Positions 24,812 to 60,840 of a DNA stretch of 64,000 nucleotides are shown one piece after another. This DNA is from a virus. The notes beneath the pieces were generated by a model. The model saw only the letters and a list, made by a program, of their open reading frames with translations. It was not told the origin of the DNA and did no database searches. Location of the stretch: the IMG/VR virus record IMGVR_UViG_3300034159_000059; one strand, 5' to 3'. The number at the start of each line of letters is the position of its first letter. Position 1 is the first letter of the stretch. The position numbers were made by a program, and so were the translations under genes.

Positions 24812-25122
24812 CAGGAACCCTTTCTACTCACCCCGTTCTTCTCATCACCCTTCTTCTTGAGACCACACACGGCGAAGTCGGTGCAGGCCTTTCCGTAGAG
24901 CCTTCGAATCTTCTCATCCTTGCAGAGTGTACAGAATAGGTTGGGCTCGTCGGTGCTGGTGATCACGATCGGTCTCATCGACTTGACGTCGCGCACGAGA
25001 ACCTCATCCGGGCTGATCGACTCAAGGGTAGCGTCTTGCAGGAGCCCCTTCTTCTCGAACTCCGAGAGAAGCTCCCGAGTGTCTCCCCAGAAGACCGCTA
25101 GCGTTGGCTTGCGCTCTGTCAT
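24811..25122 (-). CDS. hypothetical protein
   Basis: 103-aa ORF, start/stop coupled to its neighbours. Confidence 0.45.
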   Translation of the reverse strand: MTERKPTLAVFWGDTRELLSEFEKKGLLQDATLESISPDEVLVRDVKSMRPIVITSTDEPNLFCTLCKDEKIRRLYGKACTDFAVCGLKKKGDEKNGVSRKGS

Positions 25123-26609
25123 TTCGCCCGATCTTCCTGCCGCAAGAGCTCCCGGAACTGGGTGTTGAGACGATCCTTGTCTCTAGAGAGACGGGTCAGG
25201 TACTCGTCAACCCCAAGTCCTTGGGACCGTAGACCCATTCTCTCCAACATCCCTGTGCGAGGTCTAGTGGCTAGGAAGCGCTGAACGAGGACCTTCCGCT
25301 CCTCTGGAGGTAGATCAGCGTGGCTTCCGTACCTCACGCCCCGTCCAATGACCTGGCGGAGCTTCTCATCATTCCAGTGCGGCTCCAAGACCTGCATGAG
25401 CCTCGTTCCCTTCAGATCGAGGCCTTCTCCTCCTGCACTGGACAGCAAGAGGGCGCGGATCTTGTTCTCGTTGTACGCCTTCACCAGCTCGTTGCGTTCC
25501 TTCTTCTTCATCTGGCCGCTGAACTCCCCGTAAGGAATCCCGGCCTCGGTGAGCTTCTTCTTGTACGGATCGAGTCCCGCTTGCAGGTAGTTCGAGTAGA
25601 CGACAGCCTTTGCGCGCGGGTTGCTGTCGAGGTTCTTCTTCAGCTCCTCGAAGGCCTTCTGGATCTTTGGGGCTTCCGGCTCTCCAGCCGTCTGAAAGGG
25701 AGCCGTAGCGTTCGAGACCTGTCGAACTCCTCCTAGGAAGGCGTTCAGGTCGCCAGCCTCTTGTTTCGTTGGAGGCAGACCCTTCTTCACCTTGTACCGA
25801 ACCCAGAACGGAGCCTTCTTCATCAAGGTGTCGTAGAACTCAAGCTGGCGCTGGGACATCGGCACCTTCATCTCCTGAGTCTCCACCTCCGGGAAGTTCT
25901 CCTTCGAGCCTTCGTAGTAGTCGACCCACTTGTTGAGAGTCGACTGGAGCTCCTTCCTTCTAGCTGGGTTGACGATAGGAACCGAGCCAGAACTGACTCC
26001 CCGAAGCTTGGCGATGAGTCCTGGGTTCTTGCGCAGGTGGTAGATGTACCGATCTTCGAAGTCCTGCCGATCTTCTGGGAGGATCTTCCCACCAGCCGCG
26101 ATGTTGACGAGCGGGGCGATGTCGGAGGGCCGGTTGTAGAAAGGAGTGCCCGTGAGGAGAAGACGCTTCTGAGAGGTGTTCTTTCGAAGCGTCTCGAAAG
26201 TCTTGGATCCCGTATCTCTGGCTCGATGTGCCTCGTCCACCACCATGAGGGGAGCCGAGGGACCTTCTCCCTTCCTCGCGACGTTCTGCATCGAGACGAT
26301 CTTCGAAGCCTGTCGCTTCCCTTGGGTGTGTTTCTTGATCTCCTTCTTGTAGTTGGCTTGAAGAGCGGCGGGCACCACCACCGTCGAGGGAACTCCCAAC
26401 GCTTCTTGGGCTGCGATGGCTGTGAGGGTCTTTCCGGAGCCGAGGCCATGCGCGACTACCAACCCAGGCTGATCCGCCTTCTGGATCCTCTTCACTACGC
26501 GCTCTTGATGCGGCTGAAGAGGCGTGACAAGTCTCGCCTCTTTCAGCAGCCTTGCAGCTCGTAGAAGTGCCTGGGGGTCGTAGGTCACGGCTTTGCCGTT
26601 CCCTTCCAC
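25119..26609 (-). CDS. SNF2-family helicase/ATPase
   Basis: Walker A GLGSGKTLTA. DEAH box VVDEAHRARD. Motif III LLLTGTPFYNRPSD. C-terminal helicase motifs (LLSSAGGEGLDL, VIGRGVRYGS). Confidence 0.8.
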   Translation of the reverse strand: MEGNGKAVTYDPQALLRAARLLKEARLVTPLQPHQERVVKRIQKADQPGLVVAHGLGSGKTLTAIAAQEALGVPSTVVVPAALQANYKKEIKKHTQGKRQASKIVSMQNVARKGEGPSAPLMVVDEAHRARDTGSKTFETLRKNTSQKRLLLTGTPFYNRPSDIAPLVNIAAGGKILPEDRQDFEDRYIYHLRKNPGLIAKLRGVSSGSVPIVNPARRKELQSTLNKWVDYYEGSKENFPEVETQEMKVPMSQRQLEFYDTLMKKAPFWVRYKVKKGLPPTKQEAGDLNAFLGGVRQVSNATAPFQTAGEPEAPKIQKAFEELKKNLDSNPRAKAVVYSNYLQAGLDPYKKKLTEAGIPYGEFSGQMKKKERNELVKAYNENKIRALLLSSAGGEGLDLKGTRLMQVLEPHWNDEKLRQVIGRGVRYGSHADLPPEERKVLVQRFLATRPRTGMLERMGLRSQGLGVDEYLTRLSRDKDRLNTQFRELLRQEDRAK

Positions 26610-27591: not shown

Positions 27592-27594
27592 GAC

Positions 27595-27888
27595 TCACCC
27601 CGCTCGACCGCTAGAAAGCTCTTCGACCAGGGGAGGTTCTCTCACGACGTCGGACTGCGCGATCAGAGCCTGTGTCTTGGCCTTATGCTCTGAGGCGTTG
27701 CCCATCGTCATGATACCCAAAGCCGAAACGATGAGGCCCCCAAAGCCACCGTACAGCCCGACGGCGTTTGGGTAGTTTCGAACCACGAAGAGAGCACAGA
27801 AGGCCAGGCCGGAAGCTACCAGGAAGGCGATAAGCTTGCGGTTTCCTTCAGTGATTCTCTTGACGAAGTCTGCCATGCGCTCCTCCAA
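27595..27888 (-). CDS. putative holin (two TM helices)
   Basis: 97 aa. Hydrophobic segments LIAFLVASGLAFCALFVV and GLYGGFGGLIVSALGIMTM, with a charged C-terminus. Confidence 0.45.
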   Translation of the reverse strand: MEERMADFVKRITEGNRKLIAFLVASGLAFCALFVVRNYPNAVGLYGGFGGLIVSALGIMTMGNASEHKAKTQALIAQSDVVREPPLVEELSSGRAG

Positions 27889-42100: not shown

Positions 42101-43780
42101 ATTCACCGGACTCGCTGCCGTGAGCTTCTGGTTCAGATAGAGGTTCCCAGAATCGTCCATGTCCCCGATGACGTAGAGACCGGCATCAGATCCTTCTTCG
42201 ATCGATAGAACGTCTCCGAGATCTACTCCTGCGGCCTCGAACGCGAAGTCAGGGGATAGGTCATGAACGATGTTGGAGCCGCTTACGGTTAGCAGGCCCA
42301 GGCGCTCTAGAAAGAAGTGCGGGTTCTGGGTAGTAGATCCCAGCTTCCCTAGATCGTAGACCCCATCGACGACGGCTTTGGTGGTGTCTTGTGTGGTCGG
42401 TCGGACATAGATGTCGCTTCGGCCGAAGATGTGAACGGACTGGTTATCGACGGTGAGGCTCACATCCCCGATATCTGGGATGGATGTGACGTGAATTGTC
42501 CCCTTCTTCGTGAAGCCTCCTTCGAAGGACAAGGGGAGAGTGTCCAAGAAGGACTGAACGTTGGTGACTCCGAATGTCAAAGAGAGGACAGCGTCCGGAT
42601 CCTCCCAACGAACGAAGTACCCTGTCTGGAACTCTCCGGTAGACGCACGGGGGCCGAAGAGAAGCTCTGCCACCTTCAGGCGAACGAAGCGGCGAGCTTG
42701 GGGGACTCCATCAAACTGGCCCGTCTCTCCGGCTCCGAACATGCGTGACACACTGCTCCCGCCCCCTCCAACAGAAACCTTGGGGAGGTAGAAGTAGAGG
42801 GTATCCCCCGTCTGAGGGATCGCGCTCTCTTCTCCCTCAATAGTACGAGCTCGGACATAGGCCACCTGCTTGTAGAGCTCGACTACTCCAGTGATCCAGG
42901 CATGTCCTGGGGACGCGGCAACAAGGATGTCCCGCTGCATCTCCGCATCCTTGGCTCCAACCACTTGAACTGAGCGAAGTGCTCCCTTGAAGACCGTATT
43001 GAGCCGAGCTCTCGCTCCGCGACGAGTCACCAGGGAGCGCTCGGTGAGGGACTCTTCCGCAGCCGATGCGAAGGAGATCGTGTCTTGCCTGTCGGTTCCT
43101 CCTGTGAAGGCCCGAAGGTTGGAGACCTTGATGACGTTCGGAACCCCCTCGATGCCTGAGATCTCGTCGATGCCGATGTTGTAGGAGGAGCCTGCGTTCT
43201 CCGCACGGAGGGGAACGTCCATGTAAAAGAACGAGCCGTCCCGATTGAACGCCATCGACTCCGCAGAGCTGACCACTGGATTCGTCGGGAAGAAATTCAG
43301 GTTCGAACCACTGTAAACGCGATTCGCGACGTCGATCCGAACATCGGTAGGGTTGGCGAAATAGAGCCGGACGGCACCAACGGCGTAGCCACCCTGGTCC
43401 CGAGAGTCGAAGAAGTTTGCGATGAGAGCATCCGCGTCCTCATCCGACAAGACAGAAGGATCGACGAGAGACTGGTTCTTCTTGATCGTCTGCACCTCTC
43501 GCTTGAAAGGCTCCAGAATGATGCGGAGAGGGTTGATGAAGATGTCCCTCAACGCCCCTGGATCGTTGGCGTAGATGTCAGGGAACTCTTGAGCGAAACG
43601 ATCGGTGACGAACGTATCGATGTCCGTCTCGAAAGGATCCGTGCCCAGGTAGGAGAGGACAGGATGGATGAACTTCGTCTGCGCTGCGGACCCGGGAGAT
43701 ATGTCCGTGGTCGGGTCAAGCGCGACGAGACGGTCTTCTAGAAACTGCTGGAGGTCGGCGCTGGCCATGAGGTCACCCAA
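39128..43780 (-). CDS. giant virion structural protein (1550 aa), possibly baseplate-associated
   Basis: Long biased ORF. Confidence 0.55.
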   Translation of the reverse strand: MGDLMASADLQQFLEDRLVALDPTTDISPGSAAQTKFIHPVLSYLGTDPFETDIDTFVTDRFAQEFPDIYANDPGALRDIFINPLRIILEPFKREVQTIKKNQSLVDPSVLSDEDADALIANFFDSRDQGGYAVGAVRLYFANPTDVRIDVANRVYSGSNLNFFPTNPVVSSAESMAFNRDGSFFYMDVPLRAENAGSSYNIGIDEISGIEGVPNVIKVSNLRAFTGGTDRQDTISFASAAEESLTERSLVTRRGARARLNTVFKGALRSVQVVGAKDAEMQRDILVAASPGHAWITGVVELYKQVAYVRARTIEGEESAIPQTGDTLYFYLPKVSVGGGGSSVSRMFGAGETGQFDGVPQARRFVRLKVAELLFGPRASTGEFQTGYFVRWEDPDAVLSLTFGVTNVQSFLDTLPLSFEGGFTKKGTIHVTSIPDIGDVSLTVDNQSVHIFGRSDIYVRPTTQDTTKAVVDGVYDLGKLGSTTQNPHFFLERLGLLTVSGSNIVHDLSPDFAFEAAGVDLGDVLSIEEGSDAGLYVIGDMDDSGNLYLNQKLTAASPVNGLRYRVLKQIRINPFEARIVRFPFGDAEQRDLRTTIGSNLITTAQNDLLQFGARVGDTVRVLEGLDVGDYTIQSFDSKLGGQGIYLDRKLTATSFNIPFEVFTPLESVIRPLVRVRELLLLDSAKQSTGLTIPPADPAAVIPTGPLTSAKVLGSSQLASGYVLPDLSTLLDSFSSTAADSGDRRYSMGFDSPDGIYLPVIFPDGSQAELDFRSDSQGKTSFFMATTESFDDAVNTPPIDPNPGECFTIKNGPNKGSYLIKAVHKFKYSVGGNVPHPSLLGDSAPKTCYVYFLQIYGTFPVDPTKRLIEFLMEHGESIGLTSGDVSLPIPFPTFFQNWYASLGEKVYNALVDGGISDPPSGEELQGVVDAMSACYYDWGLPARGVLRTYFREPTLFEEKTGDADLVTTRSYKTSTGDFAKFRPDPLRYTQYEVVPPRLTSDADPTSYPRDLDPSDQANPVFADSSRLSIFSAGVRPGDVLSVREEVFLYTTRLQQAVVQTSAGSQQLTAPDSADTVFTASMVGNLLFIEEGSDQGGYHITRYIDGRNVLVDRVLQGSTSLISKQGAGGDYFYDAGGIYATGANVVVASSGDRPWDDSDVGSYITLFGMDYRWMGSFPILQVYNKDISGFGTAIKVQTPSQTQFNNPSTEEGTVRWITTTAPSTAPSNISRDVPPPTTAPTGTELVGAVPIRIYEAVATDFTFQSILHDASVSGGAIAPTDTLRQGVRQPYRIYRPNVRRITSTEMSQNREGFLYYFDTEIVSLAPSEQSNLAQDSYLTTDEGTYNSIGYRHAVKDPNFTYSMLEDGFLDLPINILPVGSPDSTDSLVRVVGSPVQITYERSSLVELVQDFIDSLDDRVLSAGLLSRHFLPAYVSYDASYTGGDSPGAIATDLQSYIDQLPVETAVDVSEMEKIIDNHSGNPDTPTKISSTVYDWNRRMWVEFSENQLGGAAATDTKVPYNGSPRVTFFSPGQDVSGLTDIPTGERINLTRR

Positions 43781-44420
43781 CGGTTACGGAAGCAGACCCA
43801 CCGAGCACGTTCTTGAGATCAACGACGGCGGTAAGGCTGGTGGTCTGCTGATCAAATGTCACATCTGAGAGAGATGCGGAGAGAAGACGTTCCGCAGGGG
43901 GGATGTTGGAGTTCTTCGCTTGCTGACGAAGGAGCTGCTGTTTTGTCTTCTCCACAGCAAGAGAGAGCTCTGACACGGCATTGCTCTCACTGGAAGACGC
44001 GGGCTGCCCGATGACAGACCTCGCCCCGCCTCCCGCTGTCTGGTTGAAAATGTCTGATCCTGGGTTGGTCAAGAAGATGAGTAGCCACTCTTGGACCAAC
44101 CGATCGATTCCTTCCACAGTCCTGACAGGTCTGTTGATGCCGAGCGAGATCATGGCATCGAGCTTTGACACGGACACGGGGGCCAGAACCCGTAGGTCTC
44201 GCAAGGCTTGCCCGACTTGAGAATCCGGAATGCGAGCAATGATTCGAGTCGGAGAAGTGATGATGAACTCGGAGACCCCCAACCCGTTGTACGTGATCTC
44301 GTCTGCGGTGTTGAGCCTTTCTCCGAGGATGACGATCGCTGGAGGAGAAAAGTTCCGTACAGGAGCCACAGAGGCTACCTTGAGGAGAGACTTGGCTTGG
44401 ACAACGCGAAAGTCTCTCAT
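43773..44420 (-). CDS. virion structural protein
   Basis: 215 aa, coupled to neighbours. Confidence 0.45.
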   Translation of the reverse strand: MRDFRVVQAKSLLKVASVAPVRNFSPPAIVILGERLNTADEITYNGLGVSEFIITSPTRIIARIPDSQVGQALRDLRVLAPVSVSKLDAMISLGINRPVRTVEGIDRLVQEWLLIFLTNPGSDIFNQTAGGGARSVIGQPASSSESNAVSELSLAVEKTKQQLLRQQAKNSNIPPAERLLSASLSDVTFDQQTTSLTAVVDLKNVLGGSASVTVG

Positions 44421-44734
44421 CCGACCTTCTCCGGGTTGAGCCCAAGTGCTTCAAGTTTTGTGGGGTCGCTTCCTGCGTCACTCACGGCCTGAACGACTCT
44501 ATCGATTCCCTGAGAAATGGTATCGAGCATGGAAAGCTTCGACATGCGGACGTCGATGGTGTTTCCGGAGGCGCCAAGGAGAGCTCTTGAGGCGCCTCCT
44601 TGGATGGCGTCGATCTGCTGCTGAATGAGGTGATCGAGAGTCAACGCGGCAGTGGCTCTATTTGCCTCGACCCCTCGCACGAAGGAGTAGCTCGCCTGAA
44701 GAAGCTCTTGGATGCTAGAGGGAGTAGCCATCAA
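44417..44734 (-). CDS. small virion/baseplate-type protein
   Basis: 105 aa, ATGA-coupled. Confidence 0.4.
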   Translation of the reverse strand: MMATPSSIQELLQASYSFVRGVEANRATAALTLDHLIQQQIDAIQGGASRALLGASGNTIDVRMSKLSMLDTISQGIDRVVQAVSDAGSDPTKLEALGLNPEKVG

Positions 44735-46800
44735 GCATGCCCCGCAGAGATAGAAGAAGGGGCGTCCGAGTCAGAAGTATCTTCGTCGAGGAAATTCGCT
44801 TGAGCGAATCCGGAAGCTGCTCGCATGAAGTTGCCGCCATAGGAGGCTTGATCAGCATCCATCCCAAGCAAGGCTTGGACGTCACACTTCAAGAGAAGAT
44901 CGGCCGCCCGGTCGTAGTGTCTCTCCTGAAGGGTTGTCAAGATGCCCTCAACGATCTGTCGTTCTTCCAGAGCTGCTCCATCTGGCAGCATTGTCGACGG
45001 GTCTGAGAGCAGGTTCAATAGAGAAGAAAGCTCATCCTCTAGACTCTGTGCCTCCCGAATGGCTGTGTTGCGCTGCCCTGGGGCCGAGGAAGCTTCTAGA
45101 GGGGCGATGGTTCGATCCAACTTGTTGAGGTCAGAGGCGTAAGAGAGGCTTCCCCAACGACGAACGAAGTTCTTCAAGGTCGAAATGAGGCTGTCGTAGG
45201 CCAGAGTCAGAGAGCTGATTCCCGCGACGGGGCCTGTTCGAGTCGGTAGAAGGGCGTCGATGGTGACGCTCTCTTGTCTCACGTCGATGATGGTGTGCGT
45301 CGAGGTTTCCCCGAACACCAGACGATCTCCCACCTGAACGATCTCTCGATGGTCAGTTACTCCAACAAGGCTGACCACATCAGACATCGCTGCGAAGGTT
45401 CCTGTGAGCCCGAACGAAGCCGGAGTGAGTAGAGTGAGAGTCGTCCCGGGAGCTGACTCCAGCGAGACCACTTGCACTTGGCCACTGTGGAGGGCGGTGG
45501 CTGATATAAGGGTGAAGAGCGAATTCACCGCATCAGCAACGACTTGAGCCGAGAGCGTTCGAAGGCCTACTTGCCCGACTGCGAATCCGAGCCCAGTGTG
45601 CGCGCTGAGAGCGGTGTAGGAGGGAACTTCTGTCGTCGTCTCGGAAGCAGTGCTCCAGTACACAGACAGGACCGCAACCTTCGTAGCTCCCGAGAAGTAG
45701 AGAACCCAACGCGAAGGGTCATGGGCAAACTGCGAGACAGTGACGAATCCTAGTGCTTGGGAGGTCACCGCTGAACAGAGTGCCGACACAGATGCGAAGG
45801 TCCCAGAAATCGGGATTCGCTTCTGGACTCCGTCAACGGACACGAAGAGGCCGTAGCTGGCTGGGATCGTGAGAGGAAACGTGATGGGGGAGGAGACCAG
45901 GATGGCGGCACTCTCTGCGAAGAAACTAGAGGACTCACTCCTGCCATTCACGGTGACGGTAAACACAGGACTCACTCCTAGGAGGAACGGTCCTTGGGCA
46001 CTCGTAACCTGCACCTGCGACGCGGCACTCGAAGCCGCCGTGCCGAACGGGAAGAGGGTGTCTAGGGGAGATGGAGGGGAGGCGATGCTTTTGATAGTCT
46101 CCCTGCTCCCGATGAGACGGATGGCGTAGTCTCTGGCCGGAGACGGATCCCCGGCCGCCTCGACCTGGTTGATGATGGATTCGAGGTCGAGACGAGCTCT
46201 TGCAATGGTGGAGGTGCCTATGAGGGCGTTGAAGGGGGCAGAGAGGAAGTTGTCGATCCCGACGGTAAGGTTGTAGAGCCGATCCAAGGTGTCCGCGTGT
46301 TGCTCCTTCAGAGCCTGCATCTCCGCTACTAGGTCGAGGTGTGCCTCCGCTGAAGGACGAACGAGTTCGTCGGATCCTTTGCGACGGACATTCCTTGAAA
46401 GCTCGTCTTCGAGGAACGAGTCGACCGACTTCGAATAGAGCTGGAGGGGAACCGCCTCCGAACTCATCCGTGGAAGCTTCTCCAACTGAAGCAGTGCGGT
46501 GCGGGCCTGTTGGAGAGTCGCGGCTCCCTGAATCTTGAAGGATGTGTTGCCGAGATCTTGGATGTCCTTCTTGAGTTGTTCCAAGAGGGAGATCTCGTCC
46601 TGGACCGATCTCTGAAGACCATTTCTAGCCAGCAGCGCGAAGTAGAGAGCGCTACGAGGTTTCAGAAGGAGGTTGAGCGCGACGGACTCAAAGACAGCCG
46701 TGGCCTCTATGGTGGAGTTGGTGACTCCACCAGTCTTGCCCTCGGCAACGCTTCTAGAAAGTAGCGAGGAGACATGGTCATCTAGAGAAGTCACCGCCAT
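44731..46800 (-). CDS. virion structural protein (689 aa)
   Basis: Start moved to Met (MAVTSLDD...) at 46800, coupled with the upstream stop. The listed 71-aa Arg-rich extension is rejected. Confidence 0.5.
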   Translation of the reverse strand: MAVTSLDDHVSSLLSRSVAEGKTGGVTNSTIEATAVFESVALNLLLKPRSALYFALLARNGLQRSVQDEISLLEQLKKDIQDLGNTSFKIQGAATLQQARTALLQLEKLPRMSSEAVPLQLYSKSVDSFLEDELSRNVRRKGSDELVRPSAEAHLDLVAEMQALKEQHADTLDRLYNLTVGIDNFLSAPFNALIGTSTIARARLDLESIINQVEAAGDPSPARDYAIRLIGSRETIKSIASPPSPLDTLFPFGTAASSAASQVQVTSAQGPFLLGVSPVFTVTVNGRSESSSFFAESAAILVSSPITFPLTIPASYGLFVSVDGVQKRIPISGTFASVSALCSAVTSQALGFVTVSQFAHDPSRWVLYFSGATKVAVLSVYWSTASETTTEVPSYTALSAHTGLGFAVGQVGLRTLSAQVVADAVNSLFTLISATALHSGQVQVVSLESAPGTTLTLLTPASFGLTGTFAAMSDVVSLVGVTDHREIVQVGDRLVFGETSTHTIIDVRQESVTIDALLPTRTGPVAGISSLTLAYDSLISTLKNFVRRWGSLSYASDLNKLDRTIAPLEASSAPGQRNTAIREAQSLEDELSSLLNLLSDPSTMLPDGAALEERQIVEGILTTLQERHYDRAADLLLKCDVQALLGMDADQASYGGNFMRAASGFAQANFLDEDTSDSDAPSSISAGHA

Positions 46801-47243
46801 CAGGCATCCTCGTCCTCGTCCATGTTCTCGATAAGACGTCGCTCCGCTTCGAGAATGGGGACTCCGCCACCTTCTCGCTCTAGGTGTTCGATCTTCGCCA
46901 CATGTTCCTTCGTGAGAGTCTGCACCCAATGACGGATCTTGTCCGGAGGGAGATCCACCAGGTGACAGACGTTTTCGAAGGAGTTGAAGAGCTGAGAAGG
47001 CTGGAAGAGCCACTTGTAGGCCTTCTCAGCTTCCTTGCGGGACTCCAGTTTCATCGCGTCTCGGTAAGAGACCCAATCAAAGGCCGCGCGGATGATGACC
47101 TTCATCCACAGCGCTCTGTAGCCGACATACCGGTCAACCCCGCGCTGGGCAGAGTCGTAACTGATATTCGGCCCCTTCGTGCATCGAAAGACCACCGCCG
47201 GGATGTGCTTCTGGATGATCTTGGCAAGAGCTTGTTGAGTCAT
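46800..47243 (-). CDS. hypothetical protein with acidic C-terminus
   Basis: 147 aa. Confidence 0.45.
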   Translation of the reverse strand: MTQQALAKIIQKHIPAVVFRCTKGPNISYDSAQRGVDRYVGYRALWMKVIIRAAFDWVSYRDAMKLESRKEAEKAYKWLFQPSQLFNSFENVCHLVDLPPDKIRHWVQTLTKEHVAKIEHLEREGGGVPILEAERRLIENMDEDEDA

Positions 47244-49105: not shown

Positions 49106-49402
49106 CTATTTGCACTTCGCATGGGCAGGGGAACGAGGAGGGACGACTCCGATGGTCTCCGCAAGGCGGCGAGCTGCCGAGCGAACACGCTTCTTCTCTT
49201 CCGTCGCTTTCTGAATCTCTTTTCCGAGTCGGCTGTAGACCCCCGTGATGCTCAACGACTCGACCGTCTCTCCGAGACCTGGCTGGGGAGGTTGAAGAGC
49301 GCAGAAGTCCCCACGCTCTACTGCGCGCAGATTCTCATCAACCAGCTTGGTTACACTACGACTCCGACCTCTCACTAGCCTTACAAAGAATGCGATGACC
49401 AT
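49106..49402 (-). CDS. hypothetical protein (98 aa)
   Basis: Only the Met-initiated C-terminal part of listed ORF 49106..49807 is protein-like. ATGA coupling with the upstream gene. Confidence 0.35.
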   Translation of the reverse strand: MVIAFFVRLVRGRSRSVTKLVDENLRAVERGDFCALQPPQPGLGETVESLSITGVYSRLGKEIQKATEEKKRVRSAARRLAETIGVVPPRSPAHAKCK

Positions 49403-49779
49403 TACCCACCTCCCCCTCCCGTGCGGCGATGTGGAGTCGCCGGCTGCATACCGTTGATTTGAGCTGTGAGCATCGAGACCATATCGCCGACTCGATCCAG
49501 AGCAGTAGTCGTCTCTTTGGCCTGAGCCACGTGCTCGGTGACCATCTCGATCACCTTGGAAGTAATTCCCTGGGAATCCTCCACCCTCTTCTCTTGAGCG
49601 GAGGTGACTCGCTTCCCCATCTCGTCTAGTTGCGTTACGAATTTCTCCTCCCGTTCCCGCGACAAGTTGTTGAGCCGAACGTTCTCTTTCCATAGGAAGA
49701 CTACCGCAATGTAGGGCGCAAGAATGATGAGCCCGACGATCCCGTAAGTTTTCAGAACGAGATGAGTGAATTCCTCCAT
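49402..49779 (-). CDS. membrane protein, N-terminal TM helix + coiled coil
   Basis: GIVGLIILAPYIAVVFLW, then E/K/Q-rich helices. Confidence 0.45.
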   Translation of the reverse strand: MEEFTHLVLKTYGIVGLIILAPYIAVVFLWKENVRLNNLSREREEKFVTQLDEMGKRVTSAQEKRVEDSQGITSKVIEMVTEHVAQAKETTTALDRVGDMVSMLTAQINGMQPATPHRRTGGGGG

Positions 49780-49781
49780 AC

Positions 49782-49991
49782 TCAGGATCCCTCAAGATAC
49801 GAGGCAAGGCTTTTCTGCGCGACCGCGGATACCACAGCGGTGCTGACAGCCTGAATCCCCTTCCCTCCCATTCGCCCGTTGAGAACAGCCGTCAAGACAG
49901 AGGCCTCGTTGGTCAGTCGAGCACGTTCCTTGGCCACGTACTCTTTCGTAGTGGTCTGAAGGTCTTGAAGAAGGGCGAGGCGAGTGGTCAT
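49782..49991 (-). CDS. small hypothetical protein
   Basis: 69 aa. Confidence 0.4.
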   Translation of the reverse strand: MTTRLALLQDLQTTTKEYVAKERARLTNEASVLTAVLNGRMGGKGIQAVSTAVVSAVAQKSLASYLEGS

Positions 49992-49994
49992 GGA

Positions 49995-50882
49995 TCAATC
50001 CCCCACCCGTTCGAGGATCTTCGTCATGATGGCGCGCTTCGCCTTCGAAACCTTGGACACTTCCCAGCGCAGCTTCTTGGCGATGGCTCCGCTTTTGACG
50101 ACGGGAGCATGATCTGTCCGCGGGAACATGAGCTCGTGAACCTTCTGCTCGTGCGGCTTCAGCTCTGGGTAAACTACATGAGCCGCTTGGAGGTACGGAT
50201 CGTGGGCGTGATGCCCTACGCCTTCCACCTTCTCGCCGCCAGCCGTGATGTCGTAGTTGCGTCGAACCTGGCTCTCTACCTGAAGCACATCCTTCAAGGA
50301 GAGCTTCCCTTTCGACGCATCCGCGATCTGGTGAGAAGATGGCTCGAAGCCCATCTTCTCTGTGAGCTCGTGTTTGACGGCGTTGTAAGGAGTGATCTTC
50401 TTCGCAAGATCTTCATGGATGCGCGCTGGGTTCTGGTGCCACACCACGAAGCGCTTGATACCGCGAAGGTTGTTCTCGACCCAGGTGTTGAGCCTCGCGC
50501 CAGAGGGGTGGCTAGGATCCCACTTCTCCAACGCCTTCCGGTAGTGTTGAACAAGCTCAGCCTTCTGAGTAACGCGGTTGACCTCCGCCCCTTTGAAGCG
50601 AGAGAGCCAGTTGTTGATGATAGGCATGTGGCTCTTCTTGAGAGCCTCGAAGTCTTCAGACCTCTGTCCGCCATCCATCCACTTGTGCCACATGGCCTCC
50701 TCCTTGTCTCGAAGGAGACCTCGGTTCTTCTGCTTCTCGGCGGGGCTTTCTACTGTGGGCGGAGCAAGCGATACCTTGGGAGGGGTGTAGATGGGGACCT
50801 TCGGCTGCGCCTTGGAGCGCGCCGCTGCAAGCTTCGCGAAGAGCCAGTCAAAGGCCTCGCTCCTGGTAGTGCTCTCTGCCAT
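49995..50882 (-). CDS. sigma-70 family RNA polymerase sigma factor-like protein
   Basis: KALEKWDPSHPSGARLNTWVENNLRGIKRFV aligns with region 2.2-2.4 of sigma-70 ([30 protein letters not shown]). A region-3-like ELTEKMGFEPSSHQIADASKGKLSLKDVL and a region-4-like C-terminus are also present. Confidence 0.5.
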   Translation of the reverse strand: MAESTTRSEAFDWLFAKLAAARSKAQPKVPIYTPPKVSLAPPTVESPAEKQKNRGLLRDKEEAMWHKWMDGGQRSEDFEALKKSHMPIINNWLSRFKGAEVNRVTQKAELVQHYRKALEKWDPSHPSGARLNTWVENNLRGIKRFVVWHQNPARIHEDLAKKITPYNAVKHELTEKMGFEPSSHQIADASKGKLSLKDVLQVESQVRRNYDITAGGEKVEGVGHHAHDPYLQAAHVVYPELKPHEQKVHELMFPRTDHAPVVKSGAIAKKLRWEVSKVSKAKRAIMTKILERVGD

Positions 50883-50886
50883 CGAA

Positions 50887-51366
50887 TCAGGCAGCGCCGC
50901 CGGAGAGAGGAGACTGCACCGGAGAAGCTCCTCTCGTTGGCGTAGTTGAACGCTTGGAGAGGGTCGGGAGAACGAAGGTCCCTCGACCTCCTGGAGCGGC
51001 TGATACCTTCAGGAGCTCGGGGTACCTCACCTGAGCATCCGTCAGACTGGCGGCAGCGATCTTGTCGAAGAATCCGTCAACGTTGGCTGTGACGGAGGAG
51101 GACTTGCCCATCCCGTAGAGTGATCCAAGGTCTGTAGGAGGTGGAGGGGGGATTCGCGGCGCGAGGCGCGATGGGGTCTCCGCAACGGGAGCTTGCGTGA
51201 AGAGTTGACGAAGCCGAGCCACTTCTCCGTCTCTAGCGCGATGCGCCTCGTCGAAGAGTAGTTCGGCCTCCGCACGAGTCCTGGCGCGCGTCTTCACTTC
51301 CAACTCCAGCCGCTCCTTCTCCTCGACGCCGAGGTTGGCCACTCCGGCTCTCTTGATCTTCTTCAC
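50887..51366 (-). CDS. hypothetical protein (Arg/Ala-rich)
   Basis: 159 aa. Confidence 0.4.
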   Translation of the reverse strand: MKKIKRAGVANLGVEEKERLELEVKTRARTRAEAELLFDEAHRARDGEVARLRQLFTQAPVAETPSRLAPRIPPPPPTDLGSLYGMGKSSSVTANVDGFFDKIAAASLTDAQVRYPELLKVSAAPGGRGTFVLPTLSKRSTTPTRGASPVQSPLSGGAA

Positions 51367-51375
51367 GGACGCCTC

Positions 51376-52008
51376 CTAGATCTTGGGCAGCGTTCCACGC
51401 AAGCCGATGTGTGGAACCTGCTGCGAAATGCTGGGCCCACTCTTGCCGAGGAACTGCGCCGAAGCGCGGCCGGTAGAGGGGAACTTGAAGGGAGTGGCTC
51501 CAGACGCCTTGGTCTTCTCCCACTTCTTCTTGGCATGGCGCTTCCGAGCCCATTCCGCGGCGCCGAGTCCTGCCCCCGCTGCCACGGCGCCAACCTGCCA
51601 CTTCGGATCGAGCTTGTAGAACCGTTGGGGCATCGGGCGACGAGACTGGACCCCCGCCTCTACGGCGCCATGGATGAACTTCGCTGCTCCGGCGCCCGCC
51701 AGCATGTGGACGCCGACCTCTTTGGTCTTGTCGATCTTGCTGGAAGGAGGAGCCTCCTGCTTCCGCTTTCTACGTCCCAGAACGCTGAGCCGTGGAAGAA
51801 CGGAAGGGTCCGGCCCCGCCGTCTTCTCAGAGAGCGGGAGAGATTGAGCCTTGGCGAGAATGGTCTTCGCCTTCTCGTACCCATCGCTCGGGACCGGTTG
51901 AGGGTGCGGATAGGAAAGGATCGTCTCAGCAGAGAGACCGGCGAGACTCACCTCGCCGATCTTCTTGAGCTCGTCCTCAAATCCATTTTTGAGGGCCTCC
52001 CAGAACAC
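51376..52008 (-). CDS. hypothetical basic protein, paralogous N-terminus to the next gene
   Basis: N-terminal FEDELKKIGE. GAGAAKF. KR-rich. Confidence 0.45.
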   Translation of the reverse strand: MFWEALKNGFEDELKKIGEVSLAGLSAETILSYPHPQPVPSDGYEKAKTILAKAQSLPLSEKTAGPDPSVLPRLSVLGRRKRKQEAPPSSKIDKTKEVGVHMLAGAGAAKFIHGAVEAGVQSRRPMPQRFYKLDPKWQVGAVAAGAGLGAAEWARKRHAKKKWEKTKASGATPFKFPSTGRASAQFLGKSGPSISQQVPHIGLRGTLPKI

Positions 52009-52011
52009 AGG

Positions 52012-52308
52012 CTACCTCCCCATCTGCTGCATCCTGATGGTCTTGCCTGTCTGGTAGTCCTCGGCCATCTGCTTCAGCTTGCGTTGGCCGTATAGAGCAC
52101 CGGCACCGCCTGTCGCCGCAGCGGCGAAGACGTGTCGACGGGCAAAGCCCGCTGAGGTCTTGAGCATGAAGTTCTTCTTCACGAACTTCCCGGCCTTGCC
52201 TGCAAGAGTCTCGGCCTTGAATGGACGAATCCCGGCGCGGCTGAAACCGCCACCGATCTTCTCCAGCTCATCCTCAAATGCTCGGCGGGTAACCTCCGAG
52301 AGATCCAT
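52012..52308 (-). CDS. hypothetical basic protein, paralogous N-terminus
   Basis: N-terminal FEDELEKIGG. GGAGALYG. KR-rich. Confidence 0.45.
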   Translation of the reverse strand: MDLSEVTRRAFEDELEKIGGGFSRAGIRPFKAETLAGKAGKFVKKNFMLKTSAGFARRHVFAAAATGGAGALYGQRKLKQMAEDYQTGKTIRMQQMGR

Positions 52309-52368
52309 GGACTACCTCCTCGTCCTGGCGAGGATACACCGCCACATCCGACCGTGGAAACGGTAGAA

Positions 52369-55300
52369 TTACCCTACGTAGCCTCTGTTCCCCCGCGTCA
52401 GCGCGGCCAGGTACGCTTCGACCTTCTCCAGCTTCTTGGCGCGCACGTCGTAGGAGGCGGCCACAGCCCGTTTCGCCTCGCCTCCCATCCTAGCCAGGCG
52501 CATCACAGGGTTGTCCATAAGGCCGGTCAGATTCCCAGCCTTTACCGTTGCCGGATGAACTGAGAGGGAGTGGAAGCCGAGCGTGCCGGACACCACGTTG
52601 ACGCTGGAGCCGCTGACGGAGATAGCAAGGTCGTGCGATCCCAAGAGCTCCCTCTTTGAAGCGACTGGGCGCCTGGTGAAGCTCTCGATGAACTCATCGA
52701 CGTCGAGATGCTCGGAACGCACCTTACCGTACAAGTATGCAATGAAGTTCAACGCCGTCTCAATGGAGAGTAGAGACCTCTTCTGATCGATGGTCTTGAT
52801 ACGTGCTTGAAGGGCTTTGACGTCTTCGTCGAAGGAAGTATCCAGTCCGTCCTCTGGAAGACTTGTCGGGACCTGCCTCAGTTCTGCTGGAACGCTTTGC
52901 GTGATGATTTGGTCGACGACAGACGCGCAGCCGAAGAATTTCTGGTAGATGCGCGGGCCGATGTTCTCGTTGTCGTAAGAAGTAGAAAGCCAAGAGGGAC
53001 GGACCACGTACTCGACAGGAACGCGAGGGTCTGTACTCTGGCTGTAAGGGACTGCGACTTCCTCGTGAATCATGATCGAGGTGAAATAGCGGACTCCATT
53101 CACCTCAGTCACGTTGTACGGTGGGAGAGCCTGAACAAGCTTCACCTTCCCACCCTTGAGACCCGTAGAGCCTACGGTGATGATACCTGGAGGACTTGGC
53201 ACCTTGATGGTGTCTCCCGCAGCTCCAAAAGGAGAGGCAGAGTCCACAAGGAAACTGGTGTTGGAAGAAGACTTGGTAGTCCCTTCTCCGAGAGACTGCA
53301 CAGCAACGCTCTTCTGTGTTGTCGTCTCTACCCCCTTGGAGATGGTCTTCACGTCGTAGGTGGCAGCGTTGCTGGACTGCTTGCGGATATCGAGAGCAGT
53401 GAGCGCCGCATCATTCGGCCCTTGGGGTGTGCAGTCTCTCAAGAAACTGAGCAGCTTCTCATTCGGAACCGCATCCTTGTAGCTGAGAGTCCAGTGAACC
53501 ACCTGCGTCTTGGTCTTGGTGTTCCCTGTTCGATCGAGAAGCTTCCCGATGAACTCGTCATCGATTCCAAGGTGAGAGCGGCAGTGGGACAGAGCCACGG
53601 TGGTATGTCCTCCGTCTTGGCCGACGGAGTGAGTGAGGGACTCGATCATCCCGAGGAACTGAGGAGGGGCTCCAAGCTCCCCCGCAGGGTTCTGACTGAG
53701 GCGAATGCGATCGAGGATCTCCTCCTCTGTGGCTGTGGGAAGGTTGACGTAGAACGGCTTCTGGATGACCGCAGAAGGGAACCCCACCACCAGATAAGGC
53801 ATGAAGCGGCCAGCGACGTTCAGAGTCCTAGCGCCCATGCGGTACTTGAAGAAGTGATGCATCCCGACGCGCTGGCTCCAGGTGAGCTTGGCCTGCTTGA
53901 GCTTCTTCTGAGCATCATTAGAAGTTCCCCGAAGCCAGCCAGAGCTAAAGGAATCAGGCAGCCATTCCTCTCGGGCCACGATGCCCGTGTGGAGCTCGTG
54001 ATCCATGAGGATGCGCCACTTGTTTGCCATATGCTTTGCGACCTCCAGGGAGAGGTCACGCAGGTCTGGCTCCAAGAGGTGGACGGAGAGAAGGGCCGAA
54101 TCGTTTGGAGCTGCTCCCGGGTTCGGGGTGGCGACCTGGGAGTGGACGGAGATCTCGACGCGCGTCACTTCGTTGATGAAGGTACGGTCGTATGTGAGTT
54201 GCGAGTACTGTTCCGGGAAGATCACGTTGCAGACCGGCGGAGCTCCCATGAAGCAGTCCGGACGAAAGATCTGAGATCGAAGCCGGTCGTCTCTCTTCCC
54301 AACGTAGTTGGCTCCCTCGGAGGTGGTGACCGTCTTGTCCCCCGCCGCGTCGAGAGAGGAGATGAGGTCTGCGGTGAGGCTTGCCGCAGTGGAACGCTGC
54401 ACGTCTCTTTCCTTCTCCGATAGAGTCATGAAGCTTTGAAGCAACTTCGCGATCACCGAGTTGAGGGTGCTCGCTCTGACTCCGACATCGCTCGGCAGTC
54501 CTTTGACCTTGGGCAAGACAGCCAGCACCTTCGTCTTCAAATCTGCCGAGACCTTCGCCAGAGTCGGCTTCTCCAAACTGGGGGAGTCTAGAAGGACAGC
54601 GGCGTCTTGGAGTGTCCCTCTGATGCCAGGGAAGTAGCGGCTTGCGGACAAGCTACCCTTGCTGGCAGGAACCTTGACGGAGACTTTGGTGGCAGATGGG
54701 TCATACTTCGCCACCGGGTTCGGAGCTACTGAGTAGTAGATGAACTGACAGAGCAACTTGAACATGTCGCGAAGAGTGATCTGCCCTCCGGCGACAGAGA
54801 TCTGGTTGTTCAGCCACTCGAAGAAGACACGGTGGTTGAGTAGCTTCTGAGCCGTCGAGTCGTTGTCCTCGGCCACTACCTGCGCCAGAAGATGGTTCCT
54901 CAACTCCGCGATGGTGAAGAAATCGTTCACCCCGAGCTGGTACCCTCGCAGCCCTCCCATGACTTCCATCAGACGAAGGATGCCTCCTGCCAGACCACCA
55001 ACGTCCGTTGAGCCTGGCATCTGAGGCTTCGAAAGGATCCAAGACCTGAGCTTCTCGGCGGGGCTCTGGGTAGGGACAGATGAAAAGAGGCCAGTGTTGG
55101 AAGCGTACACGCCTCCCTTCGCAACGAAAGCGTTCCCGCCCGGCCCGTAGTCCATCACCGTCGCTTGGCACAGATCCCAGTAGCTCGAATGATCCAAGCA
55201 CTGAAGAATGACGGCTCGACTCATCGGAGTCTTCTGAAAGCTGAAGCCGACGACCTCTCCACAGAAGAGAAGCTTGTAAACCTGGTCAGAGAGGCCGCTG

Positions 55301-55569
55301 TCTTGCGCGACTCCTTTATCGTTCGTGACGCGCAGCCCTGAAAGGCTCTGTCTCGCAATCTCTCCCTTGGTGGAGTTGACCAGAGGCTCCTCAAGAAAGA
55401 AGAGATGCACCATGGTGCGAGGTTTCAGCTCCATCACTTCGTCCAACGGAACGACTTGGATGGCCGCGGACACAGGAGCGAACATCGTCGCCTGAACCTG
55501 CGCCGAGATGACCGGGACTTCCTGACCTTCGAGAAAGAGACGGAGGTGGAGAGGCTTCGCAAGCGACAT
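52369..55569 (-). CDS. large virion-associated protein (1066 aa), function unknown
   Basis: Long biased ORF. Confidence 0.5.
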   Translation of the reverse strand: MSLAKPLHLRLFLEGQEVPVISAQVQATMFAPVSAAIQVVPLDEVMELKPRTMVHLFFLEEPLVNSTKGEIARQSLSGLRVTNDKGVAQDSGLSDQVYKLLFCGEVVGFSFQKTPMSRAVILQCLDHSSYWDLCQATVMDYGPGGNAFVAKGGVYASNTGLFSSVPTQSPAEKLRSWILSKPQMPGSTDVGGLAGGILRLMEVMGGLRGYQLGVNDFFTIAELRNHLLAQVVAEDNDSTAQKLLNHRVFFEWLNNQISVAGGQITLRDMFKLLCQFIYYSVAPNPVAKYDPSATKVSVKVPASKGSLSASRYFPGIRGTLQDAAVLLDSPSLEKPTLAKVSADLKTKVLAVLPKVKGLPSDVGVRASTLNSVIAKLLQSFMTLSEKERDVQRSTAASLTADLISSLDAAGDKTVTTSEGANYVGKRDDRLRSQIFRPDCFMGAPPVCNVIFPEQYSQLTYDRTFINEVTRVEISVHSQVATPNPGAAPNDSALLSVHLLEPDLRDLSLEVAKHMANKWRILMDHELHTGIVAREEWLPDSFSSGWLRGTSNDAQKKLKQAKLTWSQRVGMHHFFKYRMGARTLNVAGRFMPYLVVGFPSAVIQKPFYVNLPTATEEEILDRIRLSQNPAGELGAPPQFLGMIESLTHSVGQDGGHTTVALSHCRSHLGIDDEFIGKLLDRTGNTKTKTQVVHWTLSYKDAVPNEKLLSFLRDCTPQGPNDAALTALDIRKQSSNAATYDVKTISKGVETTTQKSVAVQSLGEGTTKSSSNTSFLVDSASPFGAAGDTIKVPSPPGIITVGSTGLKGGKVKLVQALPPYNVTEVNGVRYFTSIMIHEEVAVPYSQSTDPRVPVEYVVRPSWLSTSYDNENIGPRIYQKFFGCASVVDQIITQSVPAELRQVPTSLPEDGLDTSFDEDVKALQARIKTIDQKRSLLSIETALNFIAYLYGKVRSEHLDVDEFIESFTRRPVASKRELLGSHDLAISVSGSSVNVVSGTLGFHSLSVHPATVKAGNLTGLMDNPVMRLARMGGEAKRAVAASYDVRAKKLEKVEAYLAALTRGNRGYVG

Positions 55570-55579
55570 GGATCTCTCG

Positions 55580-57121
55580 CTACTGAGACTGGGATTGCTT
55601 CAGGGATTCCAAGCGCCGCTGCATCGCGTCGGTGGAAATGCTGGAAGCGAAGGCCTGGAATTCGGCGGTAGGAACTCCCATCACCTGCGGCTTTGAGGTC
55701 CCTGGTTGAGTGAGAGTTTGATTCGTACCGGAGGAGGTTCCGTCGGCCGAGGCTGAGATCGCGCGGTCGATGGCAGCCGCCGTTTCAGGAGATGTAGACT
55801 GCACGACGCTGTCGGCCAACGCTGCGTTGCTGAGAAGAGCTGTGGAACCTGCCACCACAGGAGTACCAGCGGCCAGCGCCGTGTTGGCCATGACACCACT
55901 TCCTGCCACAACTCCTCTTGCGGCCCCCAGCACCTGGAGACCGATACCTGTCTGGGAAAGCAAGCCGACCGTCTTCGTGATCTCCGAAGATGGAACGACT
56001 AGACCGTACCTAGCCCACTCCACCCGAGCTGTCTCGAACATCTGATCCTGACTGTCGAAGGAGGACTTGGTGTTGAAGGCCGCAGTGAATGTGTCCCCGA
56101 GCTCAAGAGATGAGGAACCGTACTGTTGAGAGATTCCAACGAACTCGTCGTCGTTCTGACCGAAAGTCGAGAATCGAATAGGGCCTTCCACACCCACGAC
56201 ATCTGCCGGAACGAACTTCGGGTCATCGAAGGCCAGCGCTCCGGCAAAGCCTACAGGGACGCGGATAGGGTCCCCGAGCCAAGCATTCGCAGAGAGAATG
56301 GAGTTCTGGGTGATCTCTGTGATCTTGGACCACGTATCTTGGATCGTCCTCACCGCATCATTCGCAATGCTCTCGAAGAGCGACGGGGACTGACCGACCG
56401 GAGTTGAGAAGGTGGGCACAAGTTGCGGTCTGTAAATGCTGGTATCCGTCTCCCCGAGATCCGTGAATGCGTTCGGGTTGGCGTTTGGATCCCCGAGACG
56501 AGAAAGGTTGGTGTAGTCGGTCACGAACATCTGGAACGAGAAAGGGACGTGGTTCCGTTCCTGTGAGTTCTTCACCGACGAGGTGGACATGATGTAGCCC
56601 GACACCATGGTGTCGTCGTAGGTGAGGTAGACGCGAGCATCGTTCTCGACACATTTCGAACCACGCAGGTAGTTCTCGTAGTTGTAGAGCCATTCGGCTT
56701 CCCAGTTGAAGTCGAAGGTGTTGATGAGGATCCCCTGAACCCCGAGAATACGCGGACGTTCTCCGAAGAAGAAGATGAACGCTTCGCCAAAGGTCTCTAC
56801 GATCTGCTGCTTCTCGACGCGCTCTTCTTGGACTTGCTGGATGAGGAAGTTCGAGTAGCTCTTCGACTTCATCATGTTGCCGTCCATCTCCCCGGTACGC
56901 GAACCGGCGTTGACGAGCGGCAGAGCGAGTCCGTTGGAGAGTAGGACCCGCAGGGTAGCGTAGGTATTGTCCTTTAGAACGATGCCGCGCGTAGGACGAC
57001 GAACGTCCCGCTGAAGCGCGCTGCGGACTTCTGCCGGATCCGAGCTCTTGATCGTGTTCGAGAGGTTCGAGAAGAGCTGGGATTGCCGATCCGGGATGAT
57101 GGCGACGGTGACGGAGCTCAT
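55580..57121 (-). CDS. virion-associated protein (513 aa)
   Basis: Long ORF. C-terminal Ala/Gly/Ser/Thr-rich tail. Confidence 0.45.
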   Translation of the reverse strand: MSSVTVAIIPDRQSQLFSNLSNTIKSSDPAEVRSALQRDVRRPTRGIVLKDNTYATLRVLLSNGLALPLVNAGSRTGEMDGNMMKSKSYSNFLIQQVQEERVEKQQIVETFGEAFIFFFGERPRILGVQGILINTFDFNWEAEWLYNYENYLRGSKCVENDARVYLTYDDTMVSGYIMSTSSVKNSQERNHVPFSFQMFVTDYTNLSRLGDPNANPNAFTDLGETDTSIYRPQLVPTFSTPVGQSPSLFESIANDAVRTIQDTWSKITEITQNSILSANAWLGDPIRVPVGFAGALAFDDPKFVPADVVGVEGPIRFSTFGQNDDEFVGISQQYGSSSLELGDTFTAAFNTKSSFDSQDQMFETARVEWARYGLVVPSSEITKTVGLLSQTGIGLQVLGAARGVVAGSGVMANTALAAGTPVVAGSTALLSNAALADSVVQSTSPETAAAIDRAISASADGTSSGTNQTLTQPGTSKPQVMGVPTAEFQAFASSISTDAMQRRLESLKQSQSQ

Positions 57122-57327
57122 CGCTCGACCCCCAGGCGAATGAGAAGATCTCGAACATCCCGAGAGACTCGGTGATTTGACGGAGTATCTCCGTTCATCA
57201 CCTCAGCCGAGTAGAGACGCATCTCCACTACCAGGACATCTTCGATGGTGGGGTTGTCTACGAGGTAGATAGTGTAAGGCCGCCCACTCAGAACAGCCTT
57301 GGTGCTGATGTCTGTGCGAAGAGGCAT
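57118..57327 (-). CDS. small hypothetical protein
   Basis: 69 aa, ATGA-coupled. Confidence 0.4.
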   Translation of the reverse strand: MPLRTDISTKAVLSGRPYTIYLVDNPTIEDVLVVEMRLYSAEVMNGDTPSNHRVSRDVRDLLIRLGVER

Positions 57328-60774: not shown

Positions 60775-60840
60775 CTGAAGTCGTCCTACCCAAGAGAAAG
60801 CTCACACGCTCTAAGGGGATAAGAAGACTAGGAGGTTCTG

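Follow-up and report, generated by a model that had tools for sequence, protein, structure and literature searches.

Why would a phage encode a sigma factor in the middle of its baseplate genes? This question is raised by an open reading frame (ORF) at positions 49995-50882, on the minus strand, of a 64,000-nucleotide stretch of viral DNA, IMG/VR record IMGVR_UViG_3300034159_000059 (the whole of this stretch is hereafter called the window). The ORF begins with ATG and was confirmed as real, and its 295-residue product is a true yet very divergent member of the sigma-70 family, with sigma domain 2, sigma domain 3, a linker resembling region 3.2 and sigma domain 4 (Table 1). A preliminary description of the window had recognised a sigma factor here and had taken it, together with three small genes that follow it, for a late-gene regulatory cassette. 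The analysis presented here points to another role, namely that of the specificity subunit of a phage-encoded RNA polymerase (RNAP), made together with the baseplate proteins and probably carried in the virion, a reading that we hold with about even confidence.

Taken alone, the protein falls under all the curated family thresholds that were tried (Pfam, NCBIfam). Pfam returned Sigma70_r3 only (E=0.0066, 17 bits against a cutoff of 25.3), with Sigma70_r2 and Sigma70_r4 unmatched, while PHROGs gave zero matches. The NCBIfam SigBFG model TIGR02980 scored 14.4 bits against a cutoff of 234; the SigBFG and cyano-RpoD models gave weak matches to most members of the family. A phmmer search of the complete set of PDB chains with this one protein yielded six matches, each weak (E=0.02-0.12) and every one to RpoS, with alignments covering regions 2.2-3.0 (ALEKWDP..ARLNTWVENNLRGIKRF aligned to RpoS); the similarity to sigma regions 2.2-2.4 noted in the preliminary description was thus recovered in the same register. 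Membership of the sigma-70 family is drawn from three other sources: the matches of a family profile to the PDB, the predicted fold, and a profile of shorter relatives that aligns through region 4.2.

A database search identified 37 homologues of the protein (32-66% identity), among them an identical copy carried on a contig of 209,442 bp; a few of them bear a prior Joint Genome Institute label of "sigma subunit". A profile made from an alignment of 34 of these 37 (A1) matched 70 PDB sequences at E<=1, and sigma factors made up 60 of the 60 listed, with RpoS as the best hit (1.3e-8). The alignment with the sigma2-3 fragment of Thermus aquaticus SigA (1ku2_A) spanned profile positions 59-199, that with SigF (1l0o_C) positions 77-294 and that with FliA positions 159-297. 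Among the 34 family members, Sigma70_r3 was found in 24 (best 4e-8), in agreement with the region-3-like stretch described earlier, which is sub-threshold on the window sequence itself, and Sigma70_r2 in six (best 0.007). An exhaustive hidden Markov model (HMM) search with A1 returned 272 clusters at E<=1e-30 and 5625 at E<=1e-3. Most of the matching clusters are 230-260 residues long and cover profile positions ~46-297, the shorter relatives matching over positions 46-297 at 1e-37 to 1e-50. A profile of 37 of these shorter relatives (A8) matched SigA at 1.4e-18, aligned from region 2 through the helix-turn-helix of region 4.2. When a profile was restricted to the last 70 residues, it matched no sigma in the PDB, so region 4 needed the support of the full-length alignments and of the intermediate family A8; these bear out the region-4.2-like C-terminus that had been proposed.

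The AlphaFold2 model of the protein is an all-helical chain of three domains, with a mean predicted local distance difference test (pLDDT) of 81. Foldseek searches with this model gave sigma factors throughout the top 50 (E down to 1e-7; 230-340 aligned columns). The TM-scores were low, as would be expected if domain orientations differ between the free model and holoenzyme-bound chains. For annotation, the lesson is that this sigma family slips past curated HMM thresholds. A 728-residue relative was also observed (P0280, L018 2401-4587), in which the sigma core (residues 24-250) is followed by ~480 additional residues that match KilA-N weakly; it represents a sigma joined to another DNA-binding module.

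In bacterial group 2/3 sigma-70 factors (RpoS, SigA, SigB/SigF/SigG, FliA) the same order of sigma2, sigma3, linker and sigma4 is found, with the same fold and a recognisable register in regions 2.2-3.0. The window sigma differs from them in its ~15% identity, its failure to reach curated cutoffs, the replacement of the region 2.3 Trp dyad (NN in the window sigma, W-x in some relatives), an extra N-terminal module and the placement of its gene in a phage baseplate operon. Conserved positions in the family include the ALEKFDP block of region 2.2, R141 and R144 of region 2.4 (R144 invariant) and RI-EP at the boundary of regions 2.4 and 3.0. AlphaFold2 helices span residues 47-70, 75-95, 103-120 and 131-149 in the region 1.2-like and sigma2 part, and residues 229-240, 243-252, 264-271 and 275-293 in sigma4, where the predicted recognition helix contains the motif SKVSK (residues 276-280, nt 50043-50057), invariant in A1. 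In the linker, pLDDT is below 50 at residues 209-225 and GGGEEVEGAG is conserved in A1. The N-terminal extension was found in only ~30 clusters and is missing from most of the wider family, including gp10 of Salmonella phage Arash and gp11 of Vibrio phage D69. Its helix has the consensus EALDWVLAKLSAA, with W13 and K17 invariant in A1, and is modelled at residues 6-24.

The sigma gene sits inside a baseplate module with tail genes on either side. Upstream lies a 1066-residue protein whose AlphaFold2 model (pLDDT 77, predicted TM-score 0.71) matched baseplate hubs in Foldseek: a baseplate chain of the Anabaena contractile injection system (CIS; 5e-9), AlgoCIS of Algoriphagus (8e-9) and gp44 of phage Mu (1wru, TMt 0.59), followed by phi812, MuSo2, T4 gp27 and VgrG. 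For this strongly conserved protein a role as major capsid protein had also been considered, but the same fold search indicated a hub. The hub family comprises more than 262 homologues, many on contigs of 195-210 kb. Downstream are the genes of gp25-like and gp6-like baseplate proteins, and the replication module (helicases, uracil-DNA glycosylase, DnaB, primase, PolA, RecA-like protein, ThyX and deoxynucleoside monophosphate (dNMP) kinase) lies on the plus strand at 458-23637. The placement among virion genes, away from the early and replication genes, was therefore described correctly. The statement that the baseplate and tail run starts directly after the three small genes needs correction, because the tape measure protein (TMP)-like, 513-residue and hub genes are already present upstream of the sigma. 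Local HMMs were used to compare the arrangement in the window with 12 further loci (13 in total, with GC contents of 41% to 63%): the order TMP-like gene, 513-residue gene, hub, small genes, sigma and d1 (the first gene after the sigma), then a 308-residue gene and the gp25-like gene, was found in 13/13 loci, where the locus extends far enough.

Two cultured phages have the sigma gene in the same slot. Blocks colinear with the window are present in Arash (OQ632216.1) and D69, with the sigma between the hub (gp8 in Arash) and the wedge genes (gp12-13). Profile matches in Arash paired gp6 with the 513-residue protein (2e-42), gp8 with the hub (2.5e-39), gp10, annotated as "RNA polymerase sigma factor RpoS", with the sigma (1e-26) and gp13 with the wedge protein (1.5e-17). 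In D69, where the record is annotated as hypothetical almost throughout, the hub, the sigma-like gp11 (7e-26) and the wedge proteins match their window counterparts. Unlike the window sigma, with which they share ~25% identity, the two proteins are short forms (229-234 residues) without the N-terminal helix and Pro-rich linker. Their loci also differ in that homologues of the small genes d1, d2, d3 and u1-u3 of the window are absent, and their genomes are of 181-187 kb with a lower GC content (45% at the D69 locus).

Both genomes encode RNAP beta and beta' subunits and an SNF2 helicase, and in Arash the helicase gene (gp217) adjoins that of beta'. In liquid chromatography-tandem mass spectrometry of Arash particles from a sucrose gradient, the sigma Gp10 was detected with 100% coverage, 24 unique peptides and 467 spectra; the highest count belonged to the beta subunit Gp206 (3516 spectra), with 1210 spectra for beta' Gp216 and 1148 for the helicase Gp217 (PMC10585845). 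Calculated here from those data, the spectra per residue amount to 2.0 for Gp10, 2.3 for Gp206, 2.0 for Gp216 and 2.4 for Gp217, compared with 0.67 for the hub Gp8 and 0.87 for Gp27, the alpha subunit of ribonucleotide reductase (RNR). Homologues of gp206, of which there are at least 427, carry Pfam Rpb2 and Rpb1 domains, which identifies gp206 as a bacterial-type fusion of beta with the N-terminal part of beta' (beta-beta'N).

The polymerase also occurs in the window's own clade. A motif scan of IMG/VR identified a clade member (L015/L217, contig of 195,735 bp) with a gp206 homologue (36% identity, E=2.7e-144), and the same contig carries genes for a long-form sigma, hub, d1, d2 and a gp25-like protein. 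A further polymerase-bearing contig, Ga0181358_1000001 (196,807 bp), is probably that of the hub homologue P0088, judging solely by the shared figure of 196,807 bp. At least one near-complete genome of the clade, and probably two, thus encode this polymerase. Giant viruses dominate among the matches listed in the NADFDGD scan of IMG/VR. In four uncultivated viral genomes of 193-202 kb (L234, L267, L287 and L290; 32-35% identity to Arash), the order is portal, beta-beta'N fusion and C-terminal part of beta' (beta'C), which places the polymerase genes within the head-gene region.

Non-coding DNA is scarce around the sigma gene, the minus strand being almost free of gaps from 60774 down to ~26800. 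The only gap nearby is one of 60 nt (52309-52368), directly after the hub stop codon, and this contains a promoter-like element (Table 1). Its clade consensus is GTTyCC followed by TGTAnnnT, the latter invariant in 8/8 aligned loci and spaced 22-23 nt from GTT in 7/8 (L004 being ambiguous); it lies 20-35 nt before the ribosome-binding site of u3. With a looser regular expression, the element was found directly after the hub stop in 9/13 loci. A second copy was sought in the window and none was found, the only sites elsewhere being orthologous ones. As a candidate RNA element the gap was rejected: it has no consensus structure (-4.7 kcal/mol, unfavourable covariation) and Rfam had no match in 38000-62000. 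A different element, yCTTATsCC, was observed 48-87 nt upstream of the TMP-like gene in 5/6 loci (the window at 60817-60823, minus strand, L001, L002, L004 and L011 are those named; one locus has 41% GC), and a search for further copies of CTTATCC gave orthologous sites only. It may represent a second promoter class distinct from the element upstream of u3, and the two look like promoters of two adjacent transcription units. The invariant SKVSK helix would fit a conserved -35-type element. In wider scans, hexamer enrichment in the non-coding DNA of the window (2.7 kb) gave nothing significant; between 44000 and 62000, sigma-70 consensus promoters numbered three against 3.4 expected and terminator-like sites 16 against 13.3 expected.

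Taken together, these observations suggest how the sigma may work. With its sigma2-3-4 core, preceded by the helix and Pro-rich linker peculiar to the clade, it would serve as a functional promoter-specificity subunit. It is a member of an extensive sigma family specific to phages, in which the gene keeps one slot between hub and wedge genes. It would be transcribed together with the baseplate genes, in the window's clade possibly from the GTTyCC-N-TGTAnnnT element after the hub gene. Its likeliest partner would be not the host core alone but the phage's bacterial-type RNAP (beta-beta'N fusion and beta'C, with the SNF2 helicase). Because it would be made late with the virion proteins and its Arash orthologue is found in virions, it would probably be built into the particle and then serve to initiate transcription when the next host is infected.

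Several points weigh against this. A serious caveat is that a sucrose gradient was the sole purification of the Arash particles; 116 of 272 proteins were detected in them, RNR and dNMP kinase among these, and the authors allow for carry-over of abundant proteins (PMC10585845). Within the 64-kb window neither beta nor beta' was located, as sites coding for NADFDGD or GDKxxGxHGNKG were not found, and the 209,442-bp contig with the identical sigma is neither among the 120 listed gp206 matches nor among eight metagenome loci. The element after the hub gene, of which 4/13 loci have no copy and the others a single one, thus defines no regulon. As neither the N-terminal extension nor d1 occurs in Arash and D69, their sigmas correspond only inexactly to that of the window. 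That the sigma would bind a core polymerase and confer promoter-specific initiation has indirect support, from the conservation of regions 2.2, 2.4 and 4.2. The data establish the sigma identity, the conserved synteny of the baseplate module and the RNAP genes of clade members, to which the published Arash proteomics is added; the pairing with the phage polymerase, the promoters that would be read and the packaging in this particular phage are inferred.

A classical phage sigma would bind the host core during infection, in the same cell, and direct it to middle or late phage promoters, its coding in a late operon giving positive feedback. SPO1 gp28/gp34 and T4 gp55 are the parallels for such a protein. 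For the window sigma this is the main rival reading, possible though somewhat unlikely. The complete sigma2-3-4 architecture would suit it, as would the RNAP gene not found in the window and the conserved promoter-like element upstream of the sigma's own cluster, and reviews state that large phages with sigma homologues generally use host RNAP (PMC7824862, PMC13282480). However, the upstream regions of late genes in the window have no shared motif, and the adjoining operon of the TMP-like and hub genes has a different upstream element, CTTATCC. Clade members and cultured relatives encode an RNAP of their own, the Arash orthologue is detected in virions, and a regulator co-transcribed with its supposed targets would make an awkward switch.

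The cassette of the preliminary description, in which d1, d2 and/or d3 would hold the sigma until its release turned on the following tail genes, is highly improbable. The three small ORFs after the sigma are real, and d2 does have a transmembrane segment and a coiled coil and is predicted to be a single-pass membrane protein; d1 follows the sigma in 13/13 loci, with tight or overlapping junctions. Yet no anti-sigma domain (ZAS, FlgM, RsbW/SpoIIAB, AsiA and similar) was found in d1 or d2 with Pfam and PHROGs, or in d3 with PHROGs; family matches of d2 were weak and non-specific, and d1 is without Cys or His. The transmembrane segment of d2 begins near residue 10, at the extreme N-terminus, which leaves no room for a cytoplasmic N-terminal anti-sigma domain. 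Moreover, d2 is present in only 10/13 loci, at least three loci lack d3 or have another gene in its place, and Arash and D69 have the sigma without any of the three. In L010 (14479-15189), d1 (HMM E=2e-20) forms the N-terminus of a 236-residue fusion with a VanY D-Ala-D-Ala carboxypeptidase domain (residues 133-235, E=7e-15). This fusion with a peptidoglycan peptidase points to a virion or cell-wall role, and d1 is probably a virion- or cell-wall-associated adaptor and not an anti-sigma factor. Nor did the proposed switch of transcription to the tail genes find support: each of the genes with starts at 49099, 47243, 44734 and 43780 directly adjoins the gene upstream or overlaps it, leaving no intergenic space for promoters, and the 120 nt upstream of each contain no common word of 7 nt or more (three common 6-mers, against 1.1 +/- 1.4 in controls). 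Detection of the Arash sigma in purified virions alongside the phage-encoded RNAP (PMC10585845) points to a logic other than a switch. For annotation, it follows that a small gene cannot be called an anti-sigma factor on the sole ground that it neighbours a phage sigma.

It is also very unlikely that the protein is derived from a sigma factor without a role in transcription, for example as an exapted baseplate-assembly protein or a virion protein that binds DNA ends. The fixed position among structural genes, the Arash orthologue in virions and a single sequence that lies under every curated sigma threshold would be compatible with this. On the other hand, the conserved positions match the needs of a working sigma (region 2.2, the region 2.4 arginines, RI-EP and the recognition helix), the three domains and the 3.2 linker are kept across at least 272 clusters, and the gene co-occurs with a phage RNAP.

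In a more specific form, put forward as doubtful, the lineage would package a sigma-dependent holoenzyme (beta-beta'N, beta'C, SNF2 helicase and sigma) in the virion and inject it for early transcription, and, in the window's clade, an N-terminal helix common only to the sigma, u2 and u3 would be a docking signal for loading into the tail or baseplate before ejection. A six-frame scan of ~209 kb with the loose motif [AG][LF]xxxLxK[LIM][SAG] gave 20 matches, at residues ~8-20 of u3, u2 and the sigma and none elsewhere; it took in the window (sites in 52012-52308, 51376-52008 and 50745-50882, minus strand) and L001, L002, L004, L005 and L007-L009. The window sigma itself (AFDWLFAKLA) is one residue off the pattern. 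As the pattern was designed post hoc, a docking helix common to the three proteins is only suggestive.

Phage-encoded specificity subunits of the sigma family that read phage promoters through the host core include T4 gp55, SPO1 gp28 and gp33/34, and phiEco32 gp36. Their genes lie in regulatory regions of the early or middle class, and gp55 is reduced to a minimal sigma2. In contrast, the window sigma is full length, is encoded in a baseplate module and belongs to a lineage with its own RNAP. The virion RNAPs of phiKZ and AR9 are encoded among late or structural genes, have been detected in virions and are proposed to start early transcription after injection; their beta/beta' subunits are split and have diverged strongly, and a sigma-70 homologue is lacking (PMC13282480). 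The virion RNAP of phage N4 is likewise packaged, but is a single-subunit enzyme. The window lineage differs from all of these in combining bacterial-type beta/beta' with a true sigma-70-family protein, its injection being only proposed.

Phage sigma factors as such are well known, also in jumbo lineages that have no RNAP, and reviews describe large phages with their own multisubunit RNAP as having no sigma homologue and those with sigma homologues as borrowing the host RNAP (PMC7824862, PMC13282480). The annotation of Arash Gp10 as a sigma and its presence in virions are already known (PMC10585845). What is unusual is that this lineage appears to combine a sigma-70-family factor with a phage bacterial-type RNAP, a pair treated as mutually exclusive in those reviews. 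The invariant place of the gene between hub and wedge genes is also out of the ordinary, as are the added N-terminal module and the d1 partner of the window's clade. The lineage extends to hundreds of hub-gene relatives on ~200-kb contigs, in addition to the cultured Arash and D69. If confirmed, a sigma-dependent phage holoenzyme carried in the virion would give early transcription a new route that is independent of the host, and since Arash infects Salmonella Typhimurium a tractable system is at hand.

Table 1. Features of the sigma locus and its surroundings in the window (positions are those of the window; AF2, AlphaFold2)
Feature	Position	Strand	Basis
Sigma-70-family factor, 295 aa, long form with N-terminal extension	49995..50882	-	Profiles, AF2, Foldseek
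N-terminal extension, residues 1-46: conserved helix then Pro-rich linker; clade-specific	50745..50882	-	A1, AF2
Region 1.2-like helix and sigma domain 2, residues 47-150 (including regions 2.2-2.4)	50433..50744	-	SigA/RpoS profile alignments, AF2
Sigma domain 3, residues 157-205	50268..50414	-	Pfam Sigma70_r3
Region 3.2-like flexible acidic linker, residues 206-228	50199..50267	-	pLDDT, A1 conservation
Sigma domain 4 with helix-turn-helix, residues 229-293	50004..50198	-	AF2, SigF/FliA alignments, A8
d1, 69-aa helical protein directly after the sigma	49782..49991	-	13/13 loci
d2, 125 aa, N-terminal transmembrane segment and coiled coil; accessory, not universal	49402..49779	-	10/13 loci
d3, 98 aa, poorly conserved accessory gene	49106..49402	-	Missing in L002 and L011; replaced in L004
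u1, upstream of the sigma; small conserved protein of 159 aa (NVDxFFxK...AQxRYPELLK; C-terminal SLSGGAA)	50887..51366	-	
u2, 210 aa: N-terminal GFEDELKKIG motif and Gly-zipper hydrophobic segments	51376..52008	-	
u3, 98 aa: N-terminal AFEDELEKIG, Gly-zipper segment, C-terminal DYQTGK (DYQTGR in most orthologues)	52012..52308	-	
Promoter-like element GTTTCC-N17-TGTATCCT	52331..52361	-	Conserved across clade loci; function inferred
Baseplate hub, 1066 aa (gp27 / Mu gp44 / VgrG-like)	52369..55569	-	AF2 and Foldseek
513-aa tail or baseplate protein, orthologue of Arash gp6 (virion-detected, PMC10585845 Table 2)	55580..57121	-	Profile match
Strongly conserved gene of 69 aa (..IDNPTIEDV..IRDxLIRLGVER), invariably placed between the TMP-like gene and that of the 513-aa protein	57118-57327	-	Conservation
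TMP-like protein, 1147 aa	57331..60774	-	Composition and position only
gp25-like baseplate protein, 215 aa, weak	43773..44420	-	phrog_2669 E=4e-4, phrog_43 E=0.009
gp6-like baseplate wedge protein, 1550 aa	39128..43780	-	phrog_6 E=3.9e-12; Arash gp13 orthologue 1.5e-17
SNF2-type helicase, Arash gp217 orthologue	25119..26609	-	Pfam SNF2-rel_dom and Helicase_C; 39% identity, E=2.5e-95

The large proteins upstream of the sigma gave zero matches in Pfam and PHROGs and zero tblastn matches among 50,697 phage records; profiles of their orthologues against the PDB were set aside, as they returned spurious matches only (e.g. M2-1, parvalbumin). The consensus of the TMP-like protein (A5) is rich in Gly, Ala and Met, and its slot equals that of Arash gp4, an abundant virion protein; it has no family match and no sequence match to gp4. 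In the gp5 slot of Arash, and in D69, a 69-residue gene likewise lies between the slots of the TMP-like and 513-residue genes, without detectable sequence similarity to that of the window.

Further observations concern the ends of the tail block and the early region. A scan of the window for tRNA genes found none. A possible lysis cassette ends the tail block (26821-27888, minus strand), comprising a 97-residue holin-like protein (weak, E=0.067) and a 256-residue protein with a transmembrane segment and coiled coil that has Rz-like spanin matches (E ~3e-4). Within the block, a 760-residue ORF with a GTG start (44731-47013, minus strand; orthologues of 705-762 residues) overlaps a 147-residue gene (46800-47243, minus strand) by ~210 nt, and its true start is probably an internal ATG near 46803 (MAVTSLDD...), giving ~690 residues. 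On the plus strand, a 218-residue early-region protein (3935-4591) has a weak match to bacterial HORMA_2 (E=6e-4, under the cutoff), and a 238-residue ORF (11402-12118) that overlaps the end of the PolA gene carries a clear DUF4031 domain (E=3e-17).

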